Shown here one piece after another: positions 19,838 to 63,294 of a DNA stretch of 64,000 nucleotides; the stretch's first letter is position 1; each line of letters opens with the position of its first letter. The translations under genes and the position numbers were made by a program. The notes beneath the pieces are model-generated. The model saw only the letters and a list, made by a program, of their open reading frames with translations, ran no database searches and was not told the DNA's origin. Origin of the DNA: Alphaproteobacteria bacterium (GTDB taxonomy: Bacteria; Pseudomonadota; Alphaproteobacteria; UBA828); NCBI GenBank assembly GCA_965220745.1, contig CBDCQT010000010.1:256001-320000 (forward strand). Direction: 5' to 3'.

Positions 19838-20118
19838 GGCGGCCACTTTCGCATCACCTGCCGCTCTGGAGCTTGGCGCGCAAGGAAGCCGGGATCGAAG
19901 ACGTGCGCCTTCATGACCTTCGTCACTCGTTCGCGAGCCACGCAGTTCTGCAAGGCATCCTGTTGCCGGTCGTCTCTCGCTTACTCGGTCACAAGCGTCC
20001 GAACATGATGATGCGCTACGCCGATGTCCACGAACGCGAGACCGAGGCGGCCGCGGAGCGCATCGGTGCGTCCATCCCGCAGGCGTTGGATGGCAGGTGG
20101 GTCAGCTCTTACGGCTGA
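19838..20118 (+). pseudogene. C-terminal fragment of a tyrosine recombinase, close paralogue of the 60381-61541 integrase
   Basis: RPLSHHLPLW..ARKEAGIEDVRLHDLRHSFASHAVLQG..LLGHKRP..RY..ETEAAAERIG, nearly the same as the 60.4-60.7 kb segment; no N-terminus. Confidence 0.85.
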
Positions 20119-36986: not shown

Positions 36987-37073
36987 CTATTTCATGGACC
37001 GATCGACGTGCTCTGAGCGCCAGCGCGGGATCAGCATGCGGATCAGCGTCGATCCCTTGTCGATGAAGGTGTG
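36987..37073 (-). pseudogene. yceJ: Displaced 3' end of yceJ (cytochrome b561)
   Basis: Reads HTFIDKGSTLIRMLIPRWRSEHVDRSMK*, the in-frame continuation of ..ALKHTF at 62.8 kb and similar to the usual YceJ tail (HHFIDxDxTLxRM). Confidence 0.88.
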
Positions 37074-37390
37074 ACAACTTGCAGGCAGGACTAGCTCTCG
37101 GTTACACATCTGATCAGCGTTGCGATCTCCTCCAATACTGTCCATTTTACAGACACTTGGACGTCTTGTCAACGGATTTCGCGTGGAGAGACGGGGTCCA
37201 TAAGGCAGAATCCTCGATAGCTCGATAGTTGCATTCGGGGACTTGACGTATTTCATTCGAATGCGGGCGACGCAATCTGGTTGTACTCTCTCGAAGCCCT
37301 TGCAGAACTTGATTTTTCAATCCATAACACATATGTAACGTTGTCTCTGGCAGCTATCGAGCCGGTAGGCGAGGCGTTGGCACATTTCGC

Positions 37391-37455
37391 GCGTATTGCG
37401 CGCGTAATACGCAGCAAAATTTGCCCACCTTATGGCGACACAGGCACGACACAGG
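37391..37455. promoter_or_regulatory. Near-perfect palindrome plus direct repeats upstream of the RHH genes (candidate RHH binding sites)
   Basis: GCGTATTGCGCGCGTAATACGC (37391-37412); CGACACAGG at 37436 and 37447. Confidence 0.5.
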
Positions 37456-37479
37456 AGGTCATACCGTGGGGCGGACGGC

Positions 37480-37806
37480 ATGAGCGGGGCAGCCGAGGGG
37501 CGCAAGCGGCAGCGCGCCATGATGGCCACAGACAGCGACTGGCAGGCGCTCAAGGAGCGCGCCGACGCTGCCGGTATGGATGTCTCGCGCTTCATTCTTG
37601 AGCGTCTGACGGCGCCTGTTGCGGTGCCGGCAGATCCGGTCATGACGCGCGATCTCGCGGTCGCAGTGGCGCGGATCGAGCGCATGGTCAGGGTGCTCTA
37701 CGAGGTCGAGAAAGAACGCGTCGAGGGTTCCGCAGGGGCGGATACCTGGCAGGCTCTGGTGCGCCGTGCCGGTGCACGGATTAATGCCGAGGAGGCACTC
37801 GGGTGA
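37480..37806 (+). CDS. MobC/NikA-like ribbon-helix-helix protein 1
   Basis: RAMMATDSDWQALKERADAAGMDVSRFI RHH pattern. Confidence 0.7.
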   Translation: MSGAAEGRKRQRAMMATDSDWQALKERADAAGMDVSRFILERLTAPVAVPADPVMTRDLAVAVARIERMVRVLYEVEKERVEGSAGADTWQALVRRAGARINAEEALG

Positions 37807-38162
37807 CGGCAATCGAGGGAGGCGGGAAGCGGGAGATTGCGCGCATCCGCAGCATCTACTGCTCGCCGGAGAACCGCGCATTGATCGGACGCCGGGCCAA
37901 GGAGGCGGGGATGAGTTTCTCGCGCTTCATGATCGCCTGCGCGCTTCATGGGGCAGACGCCGACGACGACGAGGGTCCTCGCCTTGTCCTGTCCGAGGAT
38001 GAGCAGCGGCAGCTACATGAGCGCGTGGCGCTTCTTGACCGGTGCAACGAGGCGCTGCTGTCGCGTCTGCCGGGGACGGAGATATCGGCGCTCGGCGCAC
38101 TCGCCTTCCTGGTTCGGGAAGCTCGTACCGGGTTCGGCGACGAGAGCGGGGACGGTTCATGA
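37803..38162 (+). CDS. MobC/NikA-like ribbon-helix-helix protein 2
   Basis: RSIYCSPENRALIGRRAKEAGMSFSRFM; GTGA overlap with gene 1. Confidence 0.7.
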   Translation: MTAIEGGGKREIARIRSIYCSPENRALIGRRAKEAGMSFSRFMIACALHGADADDDEGPRLVLSEDEQRQLHERVALLDRCNEALLSRLPGTEISALGALAFLVREARTGFGDESGDGS

Positions 38163-38605
38163 GGCGGCGTGGCCGGCGCCTGCCGAAGGCGTACTCGCTC
38201 TCCTGCACCGACAGCGATTGGGGACGCGTGCGGGTTCTGGCCGAGCGAAAGGGGCTCTCCATCTCACGCTACATGGTCGAGTGCGGGCTCACCGTGGACC
38301 CGACGACAGAGCCTGAGCCGCTGCCCCGGCTCGTGCTGGACGAGGCGGAGCAGCGCACCCTTCTGGACCATGTGACCGCCATTGCGGAGCGCACGGTGGA
38401 GGCAGAGACGGACGAGGCGGTGATGACGAGGGTGCGCAACTCTCTCGCCTTCCTGGCCGAGGAGACGATGCGAACCATGATGCGCGACGGCCGCGAGGAG
38501 GAGCTGCGGGCAACTCTGACAGAGCTCTTCGGCGAGCAGGTCGCAGCGGCGACCGGCGACCGCCTCCGCGCGCGCACGAGCGTCGAGAGTCCGGGCTCGC
38601 AGTGA
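38159..38605 (+). CDS. MobC/NikA-like ribbon-helix-helix protein 3
   Basis: YSLSCTDSDWGRVRVLAERKGLSISRYM; ATGA overlap with gene 2. Confidence 0.7.
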   Translation: MRRRGRRLPKAYSLSCTDSDWGRVRVLAERKGLSISRYMVECGLTVDPTTEPEPLPRLVLDEAEQRTLLDHVTAIAERTVEAETDEAVMTRVRNSLAFLAEETMRTMMRDGREEELRATLTELFGEQVAAATGDRLRARTSVESPGSQ

Positions 38606-38696: not shown

Positions 38697-41600
38697 TCAG
38701 AGTTCGAGGCCCATGTCGATGTCGCGCTCTATTGCCTTGCTGGCTTCGAGTTCCTGCTGACGGCGTTCGATCTCGGCCTTGTCCGATGCCAGGGTGGACT
38801 CGATCCGCGCCGACATGCGCCTGAGGTCGTCCTCCGCGCCCGGCCGGCTGTCGAGATGCGTGCCGAAGGTCTCGGGATCGTCGAGGATGCGGCGGCAGCC
38901 GTCGAGGGCGCGCTGGGCGTCCTCGCTCCATTCTTTGTAGCCGGGATCCTCGGTGACATGGGCGCGCTTACTGGCAGCGATAGCCGCGTGCTCTTCCCGC
39001 TGCCGGATCGAGGCGGCGGCCGCTGACAGAGCCCGGTCCAGGAAGCGCTCCGCAGCCTTGCGGTTCTCCTTCGTCGCCTCGTCCAGGACCGTCTCCTTCT
39101 CCGCAGGCGGTTGCCGGGGAGCTGTCTCCGCCGAGACCGAGGTCGAGTCGGGGGTCGAGACCGAGGTTGCGACCTCGAACTGCTCGCCGATGGCCTTGAG
39201 CGCCGACATCTCCCCGGCAGGGGCGGTCTCCAGCGCCTCGATCAGCGCCTCGCGGTCGTCGGTCAGCAGCACCACGTTGTCGCGGGCGCGGGTCAGCTCC
39301 ACATAGAAGGTCGCCTGATCGGCGACTCCCCCGCGCTCGGTATCCAGGACGGCGATGGCCCGGTCGCAGGTGATTCCCTGGGCAGCATGCACGGTCGACG
39401 AGTAGGCATGGTCAAGGTGGTGAAGCTGAGAATCGTCGCGGGTCATGACGATCTCGCGCCCGTCCCGGGTGCGTATCGTGACGTTCACCCGTCGGATGGA
39501 CAGCACTTCGGCATGCTCACCGTTGATCAGGCTTCGCGCGGGATCGTTGCGGGTCCAGCGCACCCTGTCGCCGGCCTTGAGCACCATCGGCCGGGTCTCG
39601 AAGAGATCGAGGCGGTAGCGGATATAGCCGGAGGGGTCGATGGTGCGCTCCTTGCCGCCGGGAAGGGTGAGCACGACGCGCTCGTCTCCCACCTCCGCCA
39701 CACGGCAGGCATCGCCCGCCTTCGCACGGACGCCGTAGACGTCGTGATGGAATATGGCGACGTCGCCCTCGCGGTAGTTGGCGATATCGCCCTTCTGCGA
39801 GCGGGTCAGGTGGAGATTGACGTAGCGCTCGATCTCCAGCTCGGGGCCGTGCAGCACTCCTTCGTCTTCGAGGCCGTGGCGGACGGCGGCGTTGATCTCG
39901 GCTCTGAGCTCGTGCGTGGGCGCGAGGATGGCCGTTCCGGGCCGCAGGTGAGGATCGAGGTCGAGCCAGAGTTGCGCCGCCTTCCTGCCGAGCTCGTCGC
40001 CGTCAGTCTCCAGGACGCCGTTGCCGAGTTCTTCGACCGCAAGGCGCGGCTCGTCCGCCACCATGTGCAGCACCGCCTGCCGCAGGTCCGCGTCGCGCTG
40101 GCGCACCACCTCGTCCATCCTGGCGGTGGGCATCCCTGCGTCCTGCAGCAGGGCGAAGGGCTGGCCGGCCTCGACGGCCCGCAGCTGCCTGCGGTCGCCG
40201 ATCAGCGCGAGCCGCTCCACGCCGGCCTCGACCGCGACCCGCGTCAAGGCCCGCATCTGGGTCGTGCCGACCATCGACGCCTCGTCCAGGATCAGCAACG
40301 AGCCGCCCAGGGCCTTGCGGGCATCCTCCATTTTCTCAGGGGCAGCGATGCCGTCGCCCACGTCGCGGTAGCGCGTGAGGAACCACTGGAGAGTGCGCGC
40401 CGGGATGTCGGCTTCGCCTTCGAGCACGCGCGCGGCGCTCGCCGAGGGGGCCAGTCCGACGATCTGCCGCCCGGCCAATTCGGCCACAGCACGCAGCATG
40501 GTGGTCTTGCCGGAGCCCGCATGGCCCTGCACCCCCACCGTGACATGAGGCGACAGCAGGATTCCGCGCACGGCATCGCGCTGGCCGGGGTTCAGCCCGG
40601 CAGCGTCCAGCCGCGCCTCCACCGCCTCTGCCGGCGCCAGGCCGTGTCCGGCGTTCAGGCCGGCGCGCATCCCGGCAATGATCTCGCGCTCGGCGTTGCG
40701 CGCCCGATCGGTGACGAAGGCCAGGTCTGCTCTCCGCGCCGTCGCTTCGATCAGGTGCCCGTCGCGACGGAGCCGGGCGATACCGGCGTCCAGCGCGTCG
40801 AGCGAGTGCCTGCCGCCCCCGTGGGCCAGCGCCCAGGCGCGCAGGTCGTTGGCGGAGAATACCGTGCGCCGCTCCTCCAGGTGCTCCACGGCCTGCCGCA
40901 CCACCGACAGTGCCGACGGAGCCGCTCGCGCCTCGCTCTGTAGAAACGCCGACGCTTCGACGCCGTTGCGGCCGCGCGCCGTGTCGCGATCGCGTGCGGG
41001 GCCGAGTTCCTGCGCCCGCGCCTGCCAGGTCTCCTGCAGGACCTGCCGGTCGGGCTCCGCCTTGCGACGCCGCGTATAGAGCGCGGCCTGCTGTGCTCTC
41101 GCTGGCGTGTTCTCCCAACCCCGCTCCTGCATGTAGTCCAACAACTCGCGGCGGCGGGTCGAGAACGCGTCCAGCATCGGCTTGCCGTAGCCCGCGATCT
41201 CGAACCCCGGCATCCTGCCCACCAGCGTCGGCACCGTGGCGTAGCCGATTTTCTCGAGCCCCATGCGCAGCTCGTTCCGGTAGTAGGCGCCGATGAGAAG
41301 CTTCGACCGCTCGACGGCGGTGAACTCGGCGCTGCGCCACTCCCCGTTCCGGCCGCGGGTCATGTTGGCGATCACGGCGTGCGTGTGCAGCTGCGGGTCG
41401 AGGTTGCGGCTTGCGAGATGCCGGAAAGTCGCCGCAGCCATGCCGTCGGCCTCCACCCTGGGCCGGCGCCCGGTTGCCGGGTCGTAGCTCCGGGTCTGCA
41501 ACAGCTCGGTCTCGATGAAGCCCAGCGTGGCGCGTACCGCCTCGTCGTGCGCCCTCACCACCCGCGCGCCGGTCTTCGGGGCCGCGTAGACCAGCGCCTC

Positions 41601-41891
41601 CAGGGATACTGACTTCGGCGCCGAGAGGGTCACGTCCACGCCTGGCCTGTGCTGGTGCTCGCCGTCACGCAACCGCCCGAGGCGAATATCGGTGCCGGGC
41701 ACGTATCCGGCCAGGAGTTCATCGAAGCGCTTCGGCTTCACCGGCCCGTGCAGGCCCATCAACGCCGCCGCCTCGCCGTACCAGCCGCTCGCCTTGCGGT
41801 GCTCCGGGTCTCCCTTCGCGTAGTAGCCGTCCGCCTCGAAGTAGTGCACCGTCGTGGCGGCAGCCTTCAGGCGCGTGACGGTCGCGACCAT
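38697..41891 (-). CDS. MOBF (TrwC/TraI-like) relaxase-helicase
   Basis: N-terminal YF..GYY tyrosines, D.T.SAPKSVS, H..SR..DPQLHTH, FSTRR; RecD-like helicase GHAGSGKTT, DEASM, GD..Q, TVHAAQG, YVELTRAR. Confidence 0.95.
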   Translation of the reverse strand: MVATVTRLKAAATTVHYFEADGYYAKGDPEHRKASGWYGEAAALMGLHGPVKPKRFDELLAGYVPGTDIRLGRLRDGEHQHRPGVDVTLSAPKSVSLEALVYAAPKTGARVVRAHDEAVRATLGFIETELLQTRSYDPATGRRPRVEADGMAAATFRHLASRNLDPQLHTHAVIANMTRGRNGEWRSAEFTAVERSKLLIGAYYRNELRMGLEKIGYATVPTLVGRMPGFEIAGYGKPMLDAFSTRRRELLDYMQERGWENTPARAQQAALYTRRRKAEPDRQVLQETWQARAQELGPARDRDTARGRNGVEASAFLQSEARAAPSALSVVRQAVEHLEERRTVFSANDLRAWALAHGGGRHSLDALDAGIARLRRDGHLIEATARRADLAFVTDRARNAEREIIAGMRAGLNAGHGLAPAEAVEARLDAAGLNPGQRDAVRGILLSPHVTVGVQGHAGSGKTTMLRAVAELAGRQIVGLAPSASAARVLEGEADIPARTLQWFLTRYRDVGDGIAAPEKMEDARKALGGSLLILDEASMVGTTQMRALTRVAVEAGVERLALIGDRRQLRAVEAGQPFALLQDAGMPTARMDEVVRQRDADLRQAVLHMVADEPRLAVEELGNGVLETDGDELGRKAAQLWLDLDPHLRPGTAILAPTHELRAEINAAVRHGLEDEGVLHGPELEIERYVNLHLTRSQKGDIANYREGDVAIFHHDVYGVRAKAGDACRVAEVGDERVVLTLPGGKERTIDPSGYIRYRLDLFETRPMVLKAGDRVRWTRNDPARSLINGEHAEVLSIRRVNVTIRTRDGREIVMTRDDSQLHHLDHAYSSTVHAAQGITCDRAIAVLDTERGGVADQATFYVELTRARDNVVLLTDDREALIEALETAPAGEMSALKAIGEQFEVATSVSTPDSTSVSAETAPRQPPAEKETVLDEATKENRKAAERFLDRALSAAAASIRQREEHAAIAASKRAHVTEDPGYKEWSEDAQRALDGCRRILDDPETFGTHLDSRPGAEDDLRRMSARIESTLASDKAEIERRQQELEASKAIERDIDMGLEL

Positions 41892-41897
41892 GGCTGC

Positions 41898-42800
41898 CTA
41901 CTGCTCCGCCACAGGATCGAATTCCCCTTCGGACGACACCTTGGTCAGAGTTCCTGGGTAGAAGGGGACTGTCACATCCAGCGAGGGATCGATATCCAGC
42001 CCGCACCGGATGGTTCTCTCGTCCAGACGGGCCTTCGAAGCGCATATTGCGAGCGACGGCGCGTAGTGCTCGGCGACAAAATCGTTCCACGCGTCTCGCG
42101 GGTCGCCGAAGGACACGAAATCGGTCTCCCGTTGAAGCACCAGGCCCAGCGCGAAGAAGACGAACGACGCGGCCCCGATGGCCAGTCCAGTCAGCACAGG
42201 ACGCCAGCGCTGGTCCTGGTTGATGCGGAACATGTTCGAGGCGTGAATGCGCAGATTGCTTTCCAGCGACGTCGCCACTTTCTTCAGTTCGGCCGTGGTC
42301 TCGGCGGCCATCTCAGATTGGTAGCCCGTCGCGTGGAGACGCTTGTCGAGGGCCTCGCCTTGCGCGTTCAGCGCGGCAGCGCCCTGGGCCAGTGTCCGTG
42401 CGGCTTCTGCCGCGCCGTCCTTCCGCGCTGCCAGCTCCGCGGCCTTGGCCAGCGCGCCGCGCGCGTCAGCGACCGCCTGGGCCAGCGCCGCGGTTTCGCG
42501 TGTGAGCGTCTCGGCGTTCTCGTGCGCTCGATCCGGCTCGTCCTGGAGCGCGTCGATGCGTGCGGCGGTGGCCCGCACCGTCGCGAGGATCTCCGTAATG
42601 GCGTCGTCGTGGGTATCGTCGTGCGCAGCGGGCTGCGGAGATGTGACCGGCGTCGGCGTCGGCGGCGATGGCTCAGCCTTGCCGGTCGCGGCCGGCGATC
42701 TGCGCTCCGCCCCTTCCGGCCGGCCGACCAGAAGGTCGCGACCGTCGAACGCGTCTACGCTGGAGTTCTCCCGGTGGTGTGTCTCGTTCTCAGACGCCAT
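41898..42800 (-). CDS. Coiled-coil, single-TM protein directly upstream of the relaxase
   Basis: Ala-rich coiled coil, TM VLTGLAIGAASFVFFALGLVL, small C-terminal domain with two Cys; stop 6 bp before the relaxase ATG. Confidence 0.7.
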   Translation of the reverse strand: MASENETHHRENSSVDAFDGRDLLVGRPEGAERRSPAATGKAEPSPPTPTPVTSPQPAAHDDTHDDAITEILATVRATAARIDALQDEPDRAHENAETLTRETAALAQAVADARGALAKAAELAARKDGAAEAARTLAQGAAALNAQGEALDKRLHATGYQSEMAAETTAELKKVATSLESNLRIHASNMFRINQDQRWRPVLTGLAIGAASFVFFALGLVLQRETDFVSFGDPRDAWNDFVAEHYAPSLAICASKARLDERTIRCGLDIDPSLDVTVPFYPGTLTKVSSEGEFDPVAEQ

Positions 42801-43097
42801 GGTCGCCTCACACCGATACCAACTGTTCGTGGGTTCCGCCAAATTGGATATCGGTACGAGTGGGTCAAACGGCAACTGTCTTGGCCGCTTTGAAGCACCT
42901 ATACGCGAGTGACCCTGCCGTGGAGGTGGCGAGGCGGCCCAGAAGACTGAAGCGACCATGCCGTGCCCCTGGGCCTGCCCTGCTATCACGTACAGCTTCG
43001 CGCCCGAAGTCAGTTTCGAGCGAACAAGCTCATCTTTCTCTGTCGACACTCCCACGGTAGAATTCGGTGGGTGGCTTTCAGGGAAGGACGAGGGGAC

Positions 43098-44942
43098 ATG
43101 CACTGTGCCCGGTACGCCCTGCTTGTTCTGACTCTGCTCGCTGTATCGTGGACTCTGACCGCTCCGCTTTACGCGCAGGACCGACAAGTTTTCGAGGCAG
43201 GCCCTCCAACCGAAGTAGTACAGGAGGCCCGGGCCTTGCTAGCGGCGCTGGGCTACGAGCCCGGTTCGACCGACGACGGCTCGTGGAACGAACGCCTGTC
43301 GATAGCCTATCTCACCTTTCTTCGCGACGTCGCTCTTCCGCCATCCAATGTGCTTACGCCGCAAGGTCTACACCATCTTCGCGAGGTGGCACAGTCTGAA
43401 GGCGTGGCAGGCGCCTGGGCATCCAATGAGACGGTGCCGACTTTAGGCTCTGATCGACTGCACCGCGCGGTCATTGCGGGAGACATAGAGGGCGTACGCT
43501 CACTTCTTTCGGGCGGGGCGCCCGTCGACGGGCGGGACGGCCAGGGCTGGACGCCGCTGATGCACGCGGCAAACAAGGGCTACGTGCTCTTGATCGAAAT
43601 GCTGCTTCGATCCGGCGCGTCGCCGGACGTCCGAGCAGCAGATGGAGCAACGGCACTGTTCATCGCGACCATGAACGCACACCCAGAGGCGATCGCCCAG
43701 TTGATGCGGGCGGGTGCGTCGGTTTCCATAAGGGGCCCGAGGGGCCTGACAGCTGTGGACGTGGCGCGGCTGGTCTATGGCGAGAAGAAGGACCAGCGTC
43801 CCGTTCCCGACGACGCGGAGGTGCATGCGCTTATTGCGGGAATGACTTGGGCGGAGGCAGTAAAGAAGACGGTGGCCGGACTGAAGGCAGAGCAGCAGGC
43901 AGACCCGTCCGTTTCCCCGCAACAAGGAGCCGAGCCACAGGATGCGGAACAGGAAGACTCGTCGGCGGCTCAATCTACCGGAGATGCGGAGGCGGTCGAG
44001 GCCGCGCTGGCCTTGACGCAGGCGCAGCGCGTGTCAGTCCAGAAGGCCTTGTCCGAATTGGGATTCGACGTTGGTTCGGCAGACGGCTTGTTCGGGCCTC
44101 GCACTCGAACAGCGATCGCTACCTATCAGAGAGCGGGAAACTTGTCGGAGACGGGATATCTGACCCAAGATCAGACGAAGCAGCTGCTGGTGGCAGGAGA
44201 GGAAGCCGCGCGAATGCGGGCGGAAGAAGCCGAACGCAAGCGGAGGGCGGAGGAGGAGGCACGCAAACAAGTAGCGGAGGAAGCAGAACGGAAGCGCGCG
44301 GCAGAGGAGATCGCACCTGCGCCCGAGCCGTTGTGTAGAGGTGGGGCAGGCACCCCCTGCTGGATAGAGACCCAGAACCAGCCGGGATGCCATGTGTGGG
44401 TCCGGCTCCCAGATTCGCAACCGAACGAGAGAATTATCTGGTCAGGGGCCTGCATAGATGGCATTGCCTCGGGTGAGGGGCGCATGGTCCGGCGCTACAG
44501 CGGGGGCAAGATCACTTACGCGGGAGGGATCCACGACGGCAAGTACGACGGACGCGGGATCATAACATGGCCTAGTGGTGCACGCTACGAAGGCGAGTGG
44601 CGCGACGGCAAGACGCACGGGCGCGGAACTTATACGTGGCCCAAAGGCGACCGCTACGAAGGAGGATTTATCGACGGCGAAAGGCACGGACGCGGGACTT
44701 ATACGTGGCCCAACGGCAACCGCTACGAAGGCGGGTGGAGCGACGGCAATAGGCATGGCTTCGGAACCTTTACCTATAGAAACGGCAATCGCTACGAAGG
44801 CAATTGGTCTGATGACAAGCCGAACGGCTTAGGAACTGCCTTGATCGCTGGCGAAGTTTTTCGTGGCCAATGGCACGACGGTTGCTTTGGCTCGTGGTGG
44901 CGTGGGGCGTACATTGCCGTAGCCGAAGAGTCTTGTCACTAA
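43098..44942 (+). CDS. Secreted protein with ankyrin repeats, peptidoglycan-binding domain(s) and MORN repeats
   Basis: Signal peptide; GWTPLMHAA and GATALFIA ankyrins; VQKALSELGFDVGSADGLFGPRTRTAI PG-binding; YEGEWRDGKTHGRGTYTW repeats. Confidence 0.88.
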   Translation: MHCARYALLVLTLLAVSWTLTAPLYAQDRQVFEAGPPTEVVQEARALLAALGYEPGSTDDGSWNERLSIAYLTFLRDVALPPSNVLTPQGLHHLREVAQSEGVAGAWASNETVPTLGSDRLHRAVIAGDIEGVRSLLSGGAPVDGRDGQGWTPLMHAANKGYVLLIEMLLRSGASPDVRAADGATALFIATMNAHPEAIAQLMRAGASVSIRGPRGLTAVDVARLVYGEKKDQRPVPDDAEVHALIAGMTWAEAVKKTVAGLKAEQQADPSVSPQQGAEPQDAEQEDSSAAQSTGDAEAVEAALALTQAQRVSVQKALSELGFDVGSADGLFGPRTRTAIATYQRAGNLSETGYLTQDQTKQLLVAGEEAARMRAEEAERKRRAEEEARKQVAEEAERKRAAEEIAPAPEPLCRGGAGTPCWIETQNQPGCHVWVRLPDSQPNERIIWSGACIDGIASGEGRMVRRYSGGKITYAGGIHDGKYDGRGIITWPSGARYEGEWRDGKTHGRGTYTWPKGDRYEGGFIDGERHGRGTYTWPNGNRYEGGWSDGNRHGFGTFTYRNGNRYEGNWSDDKPNGLGTALIAGEVFRGQWHDGCFGSWWRGAYIAVAEESCH

Positions 44943-51564: not shown

Positions 51565-52332
51565 ATGGATGTCCGAACTCAAGAACATAGAACAATCACT
51601 TCACCAGAACTCGGCCTACGTAAGGTAATCTCCAATTTACCTCCGATGATGATGGAAGTTCCTATTTCAGCATGGACACTCTCCATGATTGTCGACGTAG
51701 GGACTAACAATCCATACATAGTGGGTACGGCATTTCCAATTGGTAATGGAGTGTTATTGACAGCCAAACACATCCTTAATGAATATTGGAACGCAACAGA
51801 ATCTTTCCATATGGATAGGACTTTGTCTGCATTTCAGATACTACCAGGAAATAGATTTATAACATGGCGCATAACAGGAACGATTGTTCACAAGACTGCT
51901 GATTTGGCAGTTCTGTTTGCCGCGCCCAATGTGGATGGAGAAGAATTCTGGTTTCCGTCTTGGAAGATTTGCAAGAATGAGCCACGTAAAGACGAATGGG
52001 CCGGAGCTTTCGGAAATGTAAAGGGAACATGTCAAATAGTGTCGAGAAATGCAGATGGAGGTGGAATAATTGAAGTTAGAAACAAAGGCCAAGGTAACTT
52101 TGGGGTCATCAACAATGTATATAACGAATATCGCGACCGGATAATGTTGCCATGCCCCTGCTTCGAGATCGGGGTCAGTTTCGGTCCAGGTATGAGCGGT
52201 GGACCCGTATTCAATGAACAAGGCGAGATATGTGGAATTGTTTCTAGTAGCATAGAAGGAAGTTCATCCTCGCATGCTGTGACCCTCTGGCCTTCTCTTT
52301 CGCAGATTTACCAGGGAGCTGTGGAAGCATGA
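51565..52332 (+). CDS. Trypsin-like serine protease, no signal peptide, low GC
   Basis: LTAKH, DLAVL, GMSGGPV catalytic triad motifs. Confidence 0.85.
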   Translation: MDVRTQEHRTITSPELGLRKVISNLPPMMMEVPISAWTLSMIVDVGTNNPYIVGTAFPIGNGVLLTAKHILNEYWNATESFHMDRTLSAFQILPGNRFITWRITGTIVHKTADLAVLFAAPNVDGEEFWFPSWKICKNEPRKDEWAGAFGNVKGTCQIVSRNADGGGIIEVRNKGQGNFGVINNVYNEYRDRIMLPCPCFEIGVSFGPGMSGGPVFNEQGEICGIVSSSIEGSSSSHAVTLWPSLSQIYQGAVEA

Positions 52333-52356
52333 CTGGTTAAATCCAAATTCCTACGG

Positions 52357-52412
52357 ACTTGACGGCGGGTTTCGACGACACTTGACGGCGGTTCCGACGT
52401 TACTTGGCGGGA
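52357..52412. repeat. Three degenerate direct repeats, probable IS21 end repeats
   Basis: ACTTGACGGCGG at 52357 and 52380, ACTTGGCGGG at 52402; downstream of the istB remnant. Confidence 0.45.
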
Positions 52413-52660
52413 TCGTGGCCTTGTCGGCGCGCTGTCTGCTCCGGAACTGGTGCCGGGGGTGGTTGCCTCCCTGGTGTTTTCGTGGGGGCTGGCCGGAGGC
52501 CAGCCCGGAGCAGGCGTAAGCGAGCCTGTTTTGTTCTGCAATGCGTTGCGGGGCACGCTGGCAAGCCCCTTCATCGAGCATGCTGGCGCGCGTACTCCGC
52601 CTGACGGCCGGGGCTCCCTCGATGCGGCTTCCTCCTTCGAGCGGCGGGGGTGTGTTGCGC

Positions 52661-52890
52661 TCTGGCAGGCGATGAGGATGGACTTGCGCGCGTGGCGGGC
52701 CTCGACGATCTCAAGCAGGTCTCGGCGGCCCTCTGCAGAAAAGCCATGGAGGTTCCAGTCGTCGAGGAGGAGCAGGTCGACCCTTGCGAGGCGCTTCATG
52801 AAACGTTCCTGTGTGCCCTTGTCGCGGGCGCGGGCCAGCGCCGCGACCAGTTTGGGGACGCGGCGGTAGAGGACGGAGCGCTTCTGGCGG
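52661..52890 (-). pseudogene. istB: IS21 IstB ATPase fragment
   Basis: LARVDLLLLDDW..RDLLEIVEARH..SILI. Confidence 0.8.
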
Positions 52891-53368
52891 CAGGTCTGGT
52901 GGGCGGAGCGTGCAGGCGACGAATGTCTTATCGGCGCCGGAATGCGCCTTGATCGTCGAACGATCACCGAAACGGGCCCCAATGCTCATCCGTCATGCAG
53001 GTTGCAGAACGTCGTCGCGGCCACCATCTACATTAGGGACCATACGCAGATCAAAGCGCTGCCGGCAGACCGATCGGGTGATGGACATCGACATCGCCGC
53101 AAGCACCATTGAGGCTGCGCTTTGCCAGCTCCCTGAGGCGCTTGTGTAGGGGGAGAAAATCAAAGCGTCTGCCGAGCGCTGCGAGATTGCGCCGAGCACG
53201 GCGCATCGCTGGCGCCGCCGCTTCCTAGCGGCGGATAATCAGGCGCGTGAGTGGCTTGCCGGAATTGTCGAGCAGGCGGCGGAGGCCAGACCACGCCTGC
53301 GAGTTGCAATTTGAGCCTTACAAGGGGCTCAGCAGGCCACGTAAACATAGAGTCGAAAGGAATACACA

Positions 53369-60380: not shown

Positions 60381-61541
60381 TCATTCCCGCTCTCTGGCCA
60401 CACCGCAATGCAGTTCCCGCGCGATAGCGGCGCCGATGCGTTCCGCCGCCGCCTCGGTCTCCCGGTCTCCGACGTGAGCGTAGCGCAGCGTCATGCTCGG
60501 GCGCTTGTGGCCCAGCAGGCGGGAGACAACCGGTAGCGGGACGCCCTGCAGCACGGCGTGGCTGGCGAACGTATGTCGAAGGTCATGAAGGCGCACATCC
60601 TCAATGCCGGCTTCCTTGCGCGCCAAGCGCCAGAGCGGCAGGTGATGCGAGAGGGGCCGTTCGGGACTCCTTGGCGCGGGGAAGACGTAGACGCTCTCCG
60701 ACCGCGGCTGCCCCTCCAGGACGGCGCGCGCCTGCGCATTCAGAAAGACCCTCCGCGGACCAGTTTTGGCATCCGTCAGATTGAGCGTGTCACCGTCCAC
60801 GTCCTGCCAGCGCAGGGTCAGGATCTCGCTCTTGCGGCAGCCGGTCAGCAGCAGAAGGCGGATTGCGTCCGCCTGCCGCGCGCGCGCCGGCCGCGCGCCG
60901 GTGAGACGATCCAGCGCGCCATGAAGCCGGCCGACTTCATCGCGCGAGAGGAAGCGGGTGAGCTTCGGGCGGGGGTTCCACTTGATGCCGTGCGCGGGGT
61001 TCGTCCGGATATGGCCGCAGACAATCGCATGGTTCAGGACCCGGCAGAGCAGGTTCAACGCCCTGTTGGCCGCGCCCGGTGCGGTCCGGCTGCACTCGTC
61101 GAACCAGCTGGTCACGCCGGCCCGGTCGATCCGGTCCAGCGGCACCGGGCCGAAGGCCGGAAGCAGGCGCCTTGCGACGGCCCTGGCCTGTGCCTTTCTC
61201 GTGGACGGCTTGCCCCGGTCGAAACACGCCTTGCCCGGACCCACGGCGAACTCCCCGAACGTCGGGACCGCTCTGCCTTCCGGCCTGCCGGACCGCGCCC
61301 CGGTCTCGATGGCGAGGCACCCGGCGCGTGCTTCGTCGACGCTCATCAGCGCCGCGGGTCCCAGAGTGATCCTGCGTGCATCGCCCTCGCCCTTCCGGCG
61401 ATACACGAAGCTTCGGTGTCCCGAAGGCCGCACCCGCACACCGAGACCCGCATGACAGGTGTCCCAAACCGTGTACTCGCGTGCGGTCGGTGCCAGCTTG
61501 CCGACGCTGACGTCGGTCAGACGCCGCCTCTTCGCGGCCAT
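60381..61541 (-). CDS. Tyrosine recombinase B of a tandem pair
   Basis: Arm-binding N-terminus (VWD..GLGVRV.PSG); TGCRKSEI, AKTG, HDLRH, LLGH, RY. Confidence 0.93.
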   Translation of the reverse strand: MAAKRRRLTDVSVGKLAPTAREYTVWDTCHAGLGVRVRPSGHRSFVYRRKGEGDARRITLGPAALMSVDEARAGCLAIETGARSGRPEGRAVPTFGEFAVGPGKACFDRGKPSTRKAQARAVARRLLPAFGPVPLDRIDRAGVTSWFDECSRTAPGAANRALNLLCRVLNHAIVCGHIRTNPAHGIKWNPRPKLTRFLSRDEVGRLHGALDRLTGARPARARQADAIRLLLLTGCRKSEILTLRWQDVDGDTLNLTDAKTGPRRVFLNAQARAVLEGQPRSESVYVFPAPRSPERPLSHHLPLWRLARKEAGIEDVRLHDLRHTFASHAVLQGVPLPVVSRLLGHKRPSMTLRYAHVGDRETEAAAERIGAAIARELHCGVARERE

Positions 61542-61544
61542 GTC

Positions 61545-62669
61545 TCAACCCTCCAGTGCGGCGCCGACGGTGTCGGCCGCATCGCGCACCATGGCGTCTG
61601 ACAGGTGGGTGTATTTCAGGGTCGTCGCCGGATTCTTGTGCCCGAGCAGCCGGCCGATGGTCAGCACCGTCTCGCCCTGCGCCAGCGCCATGCTGGCGTA
61701 CGTATGACGGCAGTCATGAAGGCGGACATCGTGCAAATCCGCTTCGGCCCTCACGCGATACCAGACCATATCCACCGCCTCCGCGCTCAGAGAGCTGTCC
61801 GTTCTTGGCGATGGAAAGACCCAGGCTGCCGTGCGAGGCAGGTTGTCGAGGATGGCGCGCGCGGCGGACGAGAGCCAGATCGTGCGCGGTCCGACTTTGC
61901 TGTCGGGCAGGAACAGCTTGCCCTCGCGGTAGTAGCGCCACTTCAGAGTGACGATTTCGCCCTTTCGGCATCCGGTGAGCAGCAGCAGTCGTATGATCGC
62001 CACAGCCTGAGGATGATTGGCTTCGTAGTGCTCCAGCACCTCGCCCAGCCGGCGTATCTCCGCGGTCGACAGGTAGCGCTCCCGCCCCTGCCGCCGGTAT
62101 CGCTTGATGCCCTTGCAAGGATTGGTGCCCTCCGGCCGGTAGCCGTAGACTTCGGCCTGACGCATGATGACGGAGAGGATGGGGGCGGATCGGTCCGCCG
62201 CCACCGGAGTATTGTGGAGGGATGCAAACCATTGCTTGACGTCCTGGGCGGCGATGTCAGTGATCAGGCGTCCCTCGAACCAAGGCAGGATCTGGTTCCG
62301 GTAGTAGCCCCGATTGACGCTGAGCGTCGACGGCTTCCAGTTCCGGGCGTAGCGCCGAAACACTTCTTCGGCGACGGTCTCGAACGGGGTGTCCGGCAAA
62401 ATCGCAGCGCCCTCGTCGTTTCCGTTCCGGATCGAGGCCAGCATGACCCTGGCCCGTTCACGGGCATCGTCGACGCCGATGGAGCCGGACTGGCCGACGA
62501 TCCTCCAGACGCGACAACCATTGTGCTGGCTATGGATGAAGTAGCGCTTGTTGCCCGAGGGCAGTACCCTGACGCCGAAGCCCTTGAGTTCGCGGTCGCG
62601 AACGTCGTATGCGGACTTTCGGGGTTTGAGCGCGTCGACGCGGCGTTGACTGAGGCGAAGTGTTGCCAT
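61545..62669 (-). CDS. Tyrosine recombinase A of a tandem pair
   Basis: Arm-binding N-terminus (RD..LKGFGVRV.PSG); TGCRKGEI, SKVG, HDCRH, LLGH, KY; GGAGG RBS. Confidence 0.93.
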   Translation of the reverse strand: MATLRLSQRRVDALKPRKSAYDVRDRELKGFGVRVLPSGNKRYFIHSQHNGCRVWRIVGQSGSIGVDDARERARVMLASIRNGNDEGAAILPDTPFETVAEEVFRRYARNWKPSTLSVNRGYYRNQILPWFEGRLITDIAAQDVKQWFASLHNTPVAADRSAPILSVIMRQAEVYGYRPEGTNPCKGIKRYRRQGRERYLSTAEIRRLGEVLEHYEANHPQAVAIIRLLLLTGCRKGEIVTLKWRYYREGKLFLPDSKVGPRTIWLSSAARAILDNLPRTAAWVFPSPRTDSSLSAEAVDMVWYRVRAEADLHDVRLHDCRHTYASMALAQGETVLTIGRLLGHKNPATTLKYTHLSDAMVRDAADTVGAALEG

Positions 62670-62760
62670 TGGCTTTCCTCCTGCGTTCCGAGTTGCAGCC
62701 GGGGCCAAGACACGAACCGATTCCGCGTCTTCCGGCCAGAGCAGGAGGAAAAAAGCAACG

Positions 62761-63294
62761 CTATGTCAGTACATTAGCACCGAAGGTGCGCATGAAGGTG
62801 TGCTTGAGGGCCGCAATGGCGTGAATGCCGACCAAAGCGATGCCGCCGTAGGCCAGGTAGTAGTGGAGATCGATGGCGAGGTCACGGGCACCGGTGGATA
62901 CGTCGAAGAACGCCGGCACCTCGAAGAGCCCGAACATGTCGATGCCCGCACCCTCGGAGGTCGAGATCAGATAGCCGGTGACCGGCAGCACGACCAGAAG
63001 CGCACCGAGCATCCAGTGCGTGGCGGTGGCGCCGGCGCGTTCGTAAGCGCGTACCTCGGGCCCGTAGCCGGGTTTGCGATCGACCAGCTTCCAGCCGAAC
63101 TTGGCCAGCGCGAGCGCCAGCACCACGATTCCGATGGCCCTATGGAGTGCGAGGGAGTCGTTGTACCAGGGATCGTAATAGGTGAGCCCCACCATCCAGG
63201 CGCCGAGCCCGACGAGGCCCGTGAAGACGATGGCGATGGACCAGTGAAAGCCGATGGCGACGAGCCCGTAGTGGTCTCGACCGCTTCGCCACAT
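62761..63294 (-). CDS. yceJ: Cytochrome b561, C-terminus replaced by island sequence
   Basis: FHW, LHRAIG, THW, LHYY, IHAIAALKH motifs; follows yceI. Confidence 0.9.
   Translation of the reverse strand: MWRSGRDHYGLVAIGFHWSIAIVFTGLVGLGAWMVGLTYYDPWYNDSLALHRAIGIVVLALALAKFGWKLVDRKPGYGPEVRAYERAGATATHWMLGALLVVLPVTGYLISTSEGAGIDMFGLFEVPAFFDVSTGARDLAIDLHYYLAYGGIALVGIHAIAALKHTFMRTFGANVLT
62777..62802 (+). other. Candidate MOBF oriT hairpin and nic site overlapping the island junction
   Basis: GCACC-GAA-GGTGC hairpin followed by GCATGAAGGTGTG. Confidence 0.6.

Follow-up and report, generated by a model that had tools for sequence, protein, structure and literature searches.

An integrative mobilizable element family whose attachment core may lie within the element's own MOBF-type nic site

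Within a 64,000-nucleotide stretch of an alphaproteobacterial genome (assembly GCA_965220745.1, contig CBDCQT010000010.1, positions 256,001 to 320,000; here called the window), we analysed a 25.7-kb island that encodes a relaxase and two tyrosine recombinases, and whose right end resembles the nicking (nic) site of a MOBF-type origin of transfer (oriT). At the right junction, the hairpin GCACCGAAGGTGC (GCACC-GAA-GGTGC, 62777-62789, + strand), which resembles inverted repeat 2 (IR2) of the R388 oriT as given in the excerpts of Carballeira et al. 2014 used here (PMC4176350), is followed by GC and then by the 11-mer ATGAAGGTGTG at 62792-62802. A second copy of this 11-mer lies at the left junction (37063-37073). 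Both copies, on the + strand, comprise a variable spacer (ATGAA), an invariant GGTGT and a G; the right one is the attR copy of the identity block, and the left one the attL copy, with the target-derived 3' part of a cytochrome b561 gene to its left. Immediately 5' of the hairpin is the candidate IHF-like (integration host factor) box TGTCAGTACATTA (62764-62776, +), whose form, TCAR-N4-WTA, recurs in most members of the element family. The nic and the element boundary are predicted to fall between 62801 and 62802, and the nic-equivalent position at attL between 37072 and 37073.

The extent of the island was established from related genomes. Of 41 genomes searched for the right flank, 24 had a match at E <= 0.001, the window's own genome included. 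In ten of the eleven loci fetched from related genomes, the left- and right-flank alignments meet at one copy of the core, and the eleventh is consistent with this; six empty sites read ...CCCTTGTCGA(T/C)GAAGGTGTGCTTGAGG... Because the flanks meet at a single core and empty sites are found, the island spans exactly 37074-62802 and is flanked by an 11-bp repeat. It sits in the 3' part of the cytochrome b561 gene (62761-63294, - strand; PF01292, 9.9e-23), whose last codons have been replaced by island sequence and whose native 3' end lies at about 36987-37073. Empty targets share only the nic-proximal bases with the element and contain no hairpin. The initial annotation had described the hairpin, GC and 11-bp core at the right junction, with the core repeated at 37063, and had stated that the empty target shares just the nic-proximal 11 bp; the sequence and the empty sites of the relatives confirm both statements. 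Judged by its sequence, the right end is the attR of a 25.7-kb integrative mobilizable element (IME).

From left to right, the island contains a 358-bp non-coding region, two ribbon-helix-helix (RHH) genes and a conserved open reading frame (ORF) on the + strand, a convergent relaxase gene with an ORF upstream of it on the - strand, cargo genes, and tandem integrase genes on the - strand. The non-coding region (37074-37431, +) starts with ACAAC and includes blocks kept across relatives, among them GTCAA and AGTTGCATTCGGGGA (37227-37241); it is likely to be the promoter/operator of the RHH operon and possibly carries relaxosome accessory sites. The two RHH genes (37432-37806 and 37803-38162, +) are NikA-like by domain match (PF21983, E 1.2e-4 and 6e-8) and synteny, and encode putative relaxosome accessory proteins. 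The conserved ORF downstream of them (38042-38605, +) is present in 13 loci, with 85% identity in one relative locus (L013); its start is uncertain and, as listed, it overlaps the second RHH gene.

The 1064-aa product of the relaxase gene (38697-41891, -) is a relaxase-helicase of the MOBF (TrwC) type, as had been claimed from the sequence alone. PF08751 matches residues 14-296 at 3.1e-74, phmmer recovers TrwC (1omh, E 1.4e-44), pCU1 TraI (2.4e-39) and F TraI (2.5e-33), and the C-terminal superfamily 1 (SF1) helicase is matched by AAA_30 (7.2e-47), AAA_19 and Viral_helicase1. The protein aligns with the tyrosine pairs of TrwC (HYFE..ADGYYAK versus SYYE..DDYYAK) and with its HUH-type histidine motif (LHTHAVIANMT versus LHTHAVILNMT). 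The conserved ORF upstream of the relaxase gene (41898-43187, -) matches no Pfam family. Two P4-type tyrosine recombinases with Arm-DNA-bind_3 domains occupy the right end: Int1 (60381-61541, -; PF00589, 8.6e-24) and Int2 (61545-62708, -; PF00589, 1.3e-15), the latter adjoining the element end and likely starting at the ATG at 62669. By eye, both retain the catalytic arginine, HxxR and H...Y motifs. No type IV secretion system (T4SS), mating-pore or coupling-protein family was matched among the 18 island ORFs scanned with Pfam. As the element has its own integrases and relaxase, and the scanned ORFs hold no match to a T4SS or type IV coupling protein (T4CP), we classed it as an IME.

The window by itself provides no statistical support for the junction. 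The 11-mer has two matches at up to one mismatch, compared with a mean of 0.62 in shuffled sequences, 14 of 100 of which reach two; the 13-mer hairpin has a single exact match, and two matches at up to two mismatches where 2.9 are expected. The stability of the hairpin is ordinary (-6.5 kcal/mol as single-stranded DNA, z -1.75), with 13 of 200 shuffles folding equally well. Repeat, hairpin and stability are thus all within chance here, as they would be for an ordinary attachment core that happens to adjoin a small inverted repeat. We count the feature as real because it is conserved in the comparison with relatives, and not from window statistics.

A relaxase search over one genome per species returned 19 loci with 33-93% identity, in records titled Alphaproteobacteria, Rhodospirillales, Thalassobaculaceae, Ectothiorhodospiraceae and Gammaproteobacteria metagenome-assembled genomes; relatives with 67-69% identity also occur in records titled Gammaproteobacteria. 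The left junctions of the window and of 12 relaxase-bearing relatives lie in unrelated flanks and always read GTGTG followed by the element (ACAA.. or AACCAC..), the junction being GGTGTG in 12 of the 13 and TGTGTG in one. At the right ends, in five further genomes, the motif TAGCACCG(A/C)AGGTGCG(C/T), five variable bases and GGTGT stand upstream of int2 homologues (54-93% identity), and the flanks diverge beyond GGTGT. The related genome G041 contains this right-end motif 37 times, compared with 0 in a backwards control, and each of the 37 ends has an int2-clade gene, or what remains of one, no more than about 100 bp away; the same genome has about 30 relaxase-domain matches (49-96% identity). 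Five further family right ends are found in the window's own genome (G000).

Right ends from several genomes were compared as 31 strings, one of which is probably a chance match; of the 30 distinct ends, 27 retain the proximal arm GGTGCG, 21 the distal arm GCACC and 25 the core GGTGT. The base after GGTGT at attR is G in 21 strings, A in five, T in four and C in one, while at the left ends it is always G, which indicates that the element ends with GGTGT and begins with G. The earlier expectation that related islands end at GGTGT^ behind the same hairpin is therefore borne out, and in unrelated targets. These comparative data refute the reading of an ordinary core beside a fortuitous repeat, which the window alone would have allowed and which we now regard as extremely improbable: the motif has 37 matches versus none in the control of one genome, and it is kept across integrases of 54-93% identity in several genomes. 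Beyond the close relatives, a sample of 400 other genomes from the class contains the int2 clade in three, each of which also has relaxase-clade matches (48-61%). One of them (G189, loci L165 and L169; int2 55-59%) carries GCACA-TTC-TGTGC, a three-base spacer (AGA) and GGTGT, after which the copies diverge; this subfamily follows the same principle, with a compensated stem and a shorter block of about 8 bp.

Several family loci are rearranged or decayed. In G041, where the family has multiplied in a transposon-like manner, elements have inserted next to and within one another, as at 380-382 kb of contig 1, where two int2 genes follow in tandem, each with its end. On contig 10 of G000 (about 169080-169200), the stem in front of an int2 homologue (76-77%) reads GCACT-GAA-AGTGC, with both arms altered and no GGTGT after it; this is probably a decayed end. 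On contig 12 (about 265492-276800; L067 and L068), an orphan hairpin-spacer-GGTGT|G has no adjoining integrase gene and is bordered on the left by housekeeping metabolic genes; it points into a relaxase/RHH module with a left end at 276798 on the other strand, and looks rearranged or inverted. Another right end on this contig (C12:35368-36400) abuts a repeat of about 990 bp, probably an insertion sequence, with 100% identical copies at C12:403473 and C5:340675.

How closely the family ends follow a MOBF nic site can be judged against published rules. The excerpts of Carballeira et al. 2014 (PMC4176350) give the R388 nic substrate as GCGCACCGAAAGGTGCGTATTGTCT followed by the 3' part, and report that nucleotides 22-25 are GTGT in most MOBF plasmids but GTCT in R388, that G17, T18 and T23 are widely conserved in MOBF nic sites, and that the base 3' of nic has to be a purine. 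According to the same excerpts, the proximal arm and the bases up to nic are essential, whereas the loop, the distal arm and position 20 are tolerant (PMC4176350). The family has the GTGT, a G at +1 of every left end, and a proximal arm that is kept more often (27/30) than the distal one (21/30). Its ends agree with every rule in these excerpts except for spacing, since GGTGCG(T/C) and GTGT are separated by six bases and not three.

Similar sites also occur apart from these integrases. A conjugative Sphingomonas plasmid (relaxase 34.5% identical) that lacks them contains GCACC-N4-GGTGCGT-N3-GTGT|G, in a non-coding region upstream of a small gene, a T4CP gene and mobF, and on the strand that R388 would predict. 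In the window's genome, this form is seen at three unsplit sites, two of which lie 2.7-2.9 kb from relaxases of 41-42% identity; homology runs on both sides of nic, and the arrangement of these sites relative to genes is R388-like. In Leisingera and Cereibacter plasmids, no matching hairpin was found at the thresholds used. The comparison with MOBF nic sites proposed in the initial annotation thus holds for the hairpin, the GTGT and the +1 purine, while the spacing is 3 nt longer and the RHH orientation is reversed relative to R388 and the unsplit sites.

These differences from canonical MOBF oriTs in spacing and RHH orientation would also fit if the hairpin and GGTGT were an integrase binding and crossover site only, with the relaxase nicking elsewhere, for example in the left non-coding region, and the MOBF likeness due to convergence or chance. 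The motif always lies beside int2, and it persists at ends near which no clade relaxase gene was found (G000 C12:467904 and the truncated element in L066); yet the same stem and GTGT|G occur beside MOBF relaxases without these integrases adjoining, and the more distant tandem integrases in the window's genome (35-40% identity) have no such hairpin. Symmetric arm changes (GCACT/AGTGC, GCACA/TGTGC) would be as compatible with a palindromic protein site as with a hairpin, but the conservation of the family is arm-specific in the way that the published relaxase rules predict, and the stem is identical to the R388 IR2 stem in the excerpts (PMC4176350). The strongly conserved blocks of the left-end region would also suit a relaxase that acts there. 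Nicking near 37.3-37.45 kb had been named beforehand as the result that would speak against a nic site at the junction; the candidate hairpin in that region, at 37.39-37.41 kb, is not conserved in the alignment of relatives. Taken together, we consider a site for the integrase only to be quite unlikely, and the island relaxase would presumably nick at GGTGT^G.

The spacer between hairpin and GGTGT provides information on how the elements recombine. Using position and orientation, we assigned left and right ends to each other for 11 elements. The five-base spacer varies from element to element but agrees between the two ends of one element: identity extends to 48 of 55 bases, with six of the 11 pairs perfect, whereas non-cognate pairs average 1.20 of five, and none of 100000 permutations reaches the observed sum. 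The base preceding the spacer usually differs between the two ends, and the identity block consists of spacer and GGTGT, about 10 bp (11 bp in the window). An element with a 93% identical Int2 carries the window's ATGAA spacer beside an unrelated flank, which indicates that the spacer is inherited. Elements with relaxase domains 95-96% identical to that of the window carry different spacers; that each is matched nonetheless argues for DNA-DNA homology and not for recognition by the relaxase protein. Homology of this kind is the hallmark of a tyrosine-recombinase overlap.

Alternatively, the relaxase itself may integrate the element. A two-tyrosine (Y2) MOBF relaxase bound to the 5' G would cleave a single-stranded GGTGT^N target and join the transferred strand (T-strand) to it, the integrases serving excision, resolution or something else; in a hybrid form, the relaxase would exchange the nicked strand and the integrase the other strand about 10 nt away. 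TrwC offers a laboratory precedent: the excerpts of Agundez et al. 2012 (PMC3264647) report that it inserts transferred DNA at 14+3 targets whose core is 6+2, and that both Y18 and Y26 are needed. Integration of this kind would account for a boundary at the predicted nic in every member, for targets that share the nic-proximal bases only and have no hairpin, and for a relaxase that aligns with both TrwC tyrosine pairs and the HUH motif. A 10-nt stagger between relaxase nick and integrase cut would, in addition, account for the 10-bp length of the homology as well as for its stopping at nic. It sits less well with spacers that are matched although relaxase domains of 95% identity go with different ones, as recognition of a target by DNA homology is, to our knowledge, used by no known relaxase. 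An integrase gene or remnant stands beside 37 of 37 ends in G041, and no integrase-free copy of the kind that had been suggested as a test, lacking remnants as well, was found at an element end.

Imperfect spacer pairs can distinguish the two mechanisms, and two cases are informative, one in each direction, which is a small number. The first is a 17.4-kb member in G041. The contigs of three of four sequencing runs join across this element exactly at its ends, with joint depths of 14, 4 and 22 versus about 60, 8 and 45 inside the element; the empty-site joint is represented by one contig per run with just 19-21 letters on the shorter side. Its attL is of the target type and its attR of the element type, as expected from a relaxase but allowed by both models. 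The second is a 48-kb element on contig 5 of the window's genome, for which the empty-site spacer is TAGGC in ten of ten relatives (core GGTGT in nine, AGTGT in one). Here attR has TAGGC, the target's letters, and attL has TAGGG, so that the target's base is at attR and the non-target base at attL, contrary to what relaxase integration would leave. This pattern, as the sequences stand, is explained by a staggered exchange with segregation of the heteroduplex, and not by exchange at nic unless a point mutation followed later. Further empty sites were unreadable: the flank at 429 kb of G041 contig 1 is unique to that genome, C12:35368 lies beside a multicopy repeat, and the flanks of C12:185061 and C12:467904 are diverged or duplicated.

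The orientation of the ends bears on the same question. In the laboratory, chromosomal integration by TrwC worked only with nic in the lagging strand, according to the excerpts (PMC3264647). On contig 1 of G041, where dnaA is at 156 kb, 15 of 20 ends have the nic strand as lagging-strand template if the origin is at dnaA (two-sided binomial p ~0.04), which would favour the relaxase over the recombinases; the sole rRNA operon on contig 3 (663 kb, +) suggests the same direction, with six of eight ends of the neighbouring cluster in + orientation. Neither GC skew (thirty-nine 20-kb samples) nor GC3-filtered gene-strand counts gave a replichore signal in contigs 1 and 3, so the orientation test rests on dnaA and one rRNA operon; a RepC family search gave no match. 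The trend is weak, the copies are nested or duplicated and the origin is placed from dnaA alone, and we treat it as suggestive only. On this evidence, integration by the relaxase, hybrid included, appears unlikely. Worded more broadly, as a conjugative MOBF relaxase directly involved in the chromosomal integration of a natural element by exchanging the nicked strand at GGTGT^G, alone or with a tyrosine recombinase cutting the other strand about 10 nt away, the claim is still a rather unlikely one. If it were true, the family would amount to a relaxase-assisted "conjugative transposon" whose targets are GGTGT sites that become exposed on the lagging-strand template.

Of the two alternatives raised in the initial annotation, an attachment site built into oriT is therefore the one favoured by the integrase at 37 of 37 ends, the spacer matching and the contig 5 element, and the relaxase as integrator is less favoured. 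We propose, with somewhat better than even confidence, that the tyrosine recombinases exchange strands in the spacer and adjoining GGTGT of the element's own oriT nic site, so that integration splits oriT and excision rebuilds it. In the excised circle, the right end would be joined to the G-ACAAC of the left end, so that hairpin, spacer and GGTGT^G together would make up a full MOBF-type nic site, with the integrase operon and the RHH operon diverging from it on either side. Integration and excision would both be the work of the two tandem P4-type recombinases, whose crossover region would correspond to the block of about 10 bp from the hairpin foot to the nic position, and a target would need homology to this block only. 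Within this model, the relaxase would keep GGTGT from changing in the element, which would explain its presence in every target. The spacer, to which the relaxase would be insensitive, would be free, and would drift when an element enters an imperfect site and the heteroduplex segregates. Once excision has restored oriT beside the RHH operon, the TrwC-type relaxase of the element would nick the circle, and a helper type IV system would transfer it. From the observed anatomy and conservation of the ends, the empty sites, the spacer matching and the linkage to integrases, we infer which enzyme exchanges which strand and how wide the overlap is.

A number of observations weigh against this assignment to the recombinases. 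The distance from hairpin to nic is 3 nt longer than in R388, in the Sphingomonas plasmid and in the unsplit G000 sites (GGTGCGT plus 3 nt). The RHH genes have the nic strand as their sense strand and in the joined form lie 3' of nic, opposite to the arrangement in R388 and at the unsplit sites. With single-nucleotide precision, the identity block stops at the predicted nic, which the model must treat as coincidence or as an unexplained adaptation. The overlaps known for tyrosine recombinases are 6-8 bp, which the crossover block of about 10 bp exceeds, and inverted core-type repeats flanking the block are not evident by eye. The contig 5 argument concerns one base, which could be a later mutation. 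No circle joint was present in the read contigs examined for the 17.4-kb G041 member. A metagenome scan gave no match to the joined-end pattern with GACAA, and a looser pattern gave no family members among the 80 loci listed, from which nothing follows about circles.

Integrated elements known to us keep their attachment site apart from their origin of transfer. We found no report of an attachment core inside an element's own nic site in a full-text literature search, outside of which lay subscription journals and supplements; the excerpted literature on the Ptw oriT, on S. suis 89K and on genomic-island hitchers contains nothing on overlap between attachment site and oriT. If the proposed model is correct, attachment and transfer functions would share about 30 bp. 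Integration would then disarm oriT, avoiding nicking of the element of the Hfr kind (high frequency of recombination), and excision would re-arm it, while the sequence needs of the relaxase would dictate which chromosomal target sites are usable. The family also provides a natural system for the long-standing question of whether relaxases act as integrases outside the laboratory. As a separate observation, a purine follows GGTGT at attR in 26 of the 31 strings; should the relaxase be able to nick attR, integrated copies might mobilize adjoining chromosomal DNA in an Hfr-like manner.

Other features of the window concern the cargo and its surroundings. The product of a cargo gene at 42963-44942 has ankyrin repeats, a peptidoglycan-binding domain and MORN repeats, the last of which correspond to five 69-nt tandem DNA units at 44514-44837. 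Two pairs of inverted repeats lie inside the island (52484-52524/57129-57169, 41 nt, 80%; 51221-51249/55950-55978, 29 nt, 83%); the two members of each pair are about 4.6-4.7 kb apart, near an IstB fragment (52308-52982), and may mark a nested insertion. Upstream of the island, a fragment at 19840-20088 (+) resembles the C-terminal part of Int1 (83% over residues 295-377) and may be the remnant of a family member.

The family can be compared with several known systems. CTnDOT, Tn916 and Tn554 have a short conserved motif beside a variable crossover or "coupling" segment, which travels with the element and can differ between the junctions. In our family, by contrast, the variable segment usually matches the target (six of 11 pairs perfectly), the block measures about 10 bp, and the fixed motif would be the U-turn motif of a relaxase. 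The HUH single-strand transposons (IS200/IS605, IS91 and Helitrons) have a subterminal hairpin, insert 3' of a short fixed motif and lack terminal inverted repeats, as does the family described here; a strand bias may be a further likeness. However, the family has a conjugative relaxase-helicase as its HUH enzyme, it is never seen without integrases, its strand bias is weak, and element and target have a block of homology in common.

A further likeness is to the oriTs of R388 and F. The relaxase domain is homologous to TrwC (E 1.4e-44), the stem GCACC/GGTGC with the following G(T/C) equals IR2 of the R388 nic oligonucleotide in the excerpts (PMC4176350), the GTGT at -4 to -1 is shared with most MOBF plasmids and is followed by a purine at +1, and RHH accessory genes and an IHF-like box lie near the site. 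The island differs in that its arm-to-nic distance is 3 nt longer, with five bases free to vary, in that its site is split by integration, in that the nic strand is sense for the RHH genes, and in that neither a coupling protein nor a T4SS was found among the 18 ORFs scanned. With the laboratory integration by TrwC described in the excerpts (PMC3264647), the family shares a Y2 MOBF relaxase, short nic-like targets (6+2 core there) and a possible preference for the lagging strand in the chromosome, whereas it differs in matching its targets through a variable spacer, in always having integrases, and in one mismatch pattern that argues against exchange at nic.

Among IMEs, the excerpts of a 2017 review state that no canonical IME with a MobF relaxase was then known, and that MTnPi1-3 carry tandem, distantly related tyrosine recombinases (PMC5704250); MOBF-carrying IMEs at tRNA and gene sites are described for Mesorhizobium (excerpts of PMC8627217). 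Like these, the family combines integrases and a relaxase with accessory genes, and no mating-pore genes were found. In the excerpted accounts, their attachment sites are specific to genes or tRNAs and separate from oriT, whereas our family has many targets and an attachment core that appears to lie in the nic site. Integration is likewise tied to a nic site in IME_oriT of Streptococcus agalactiae, which, according to the excerpts of the same review, inserts into the nic site of Tn916 (PMC5704250). That element uses the oriT of another element, while in the family described here the element's own nic site would be its attachment site.

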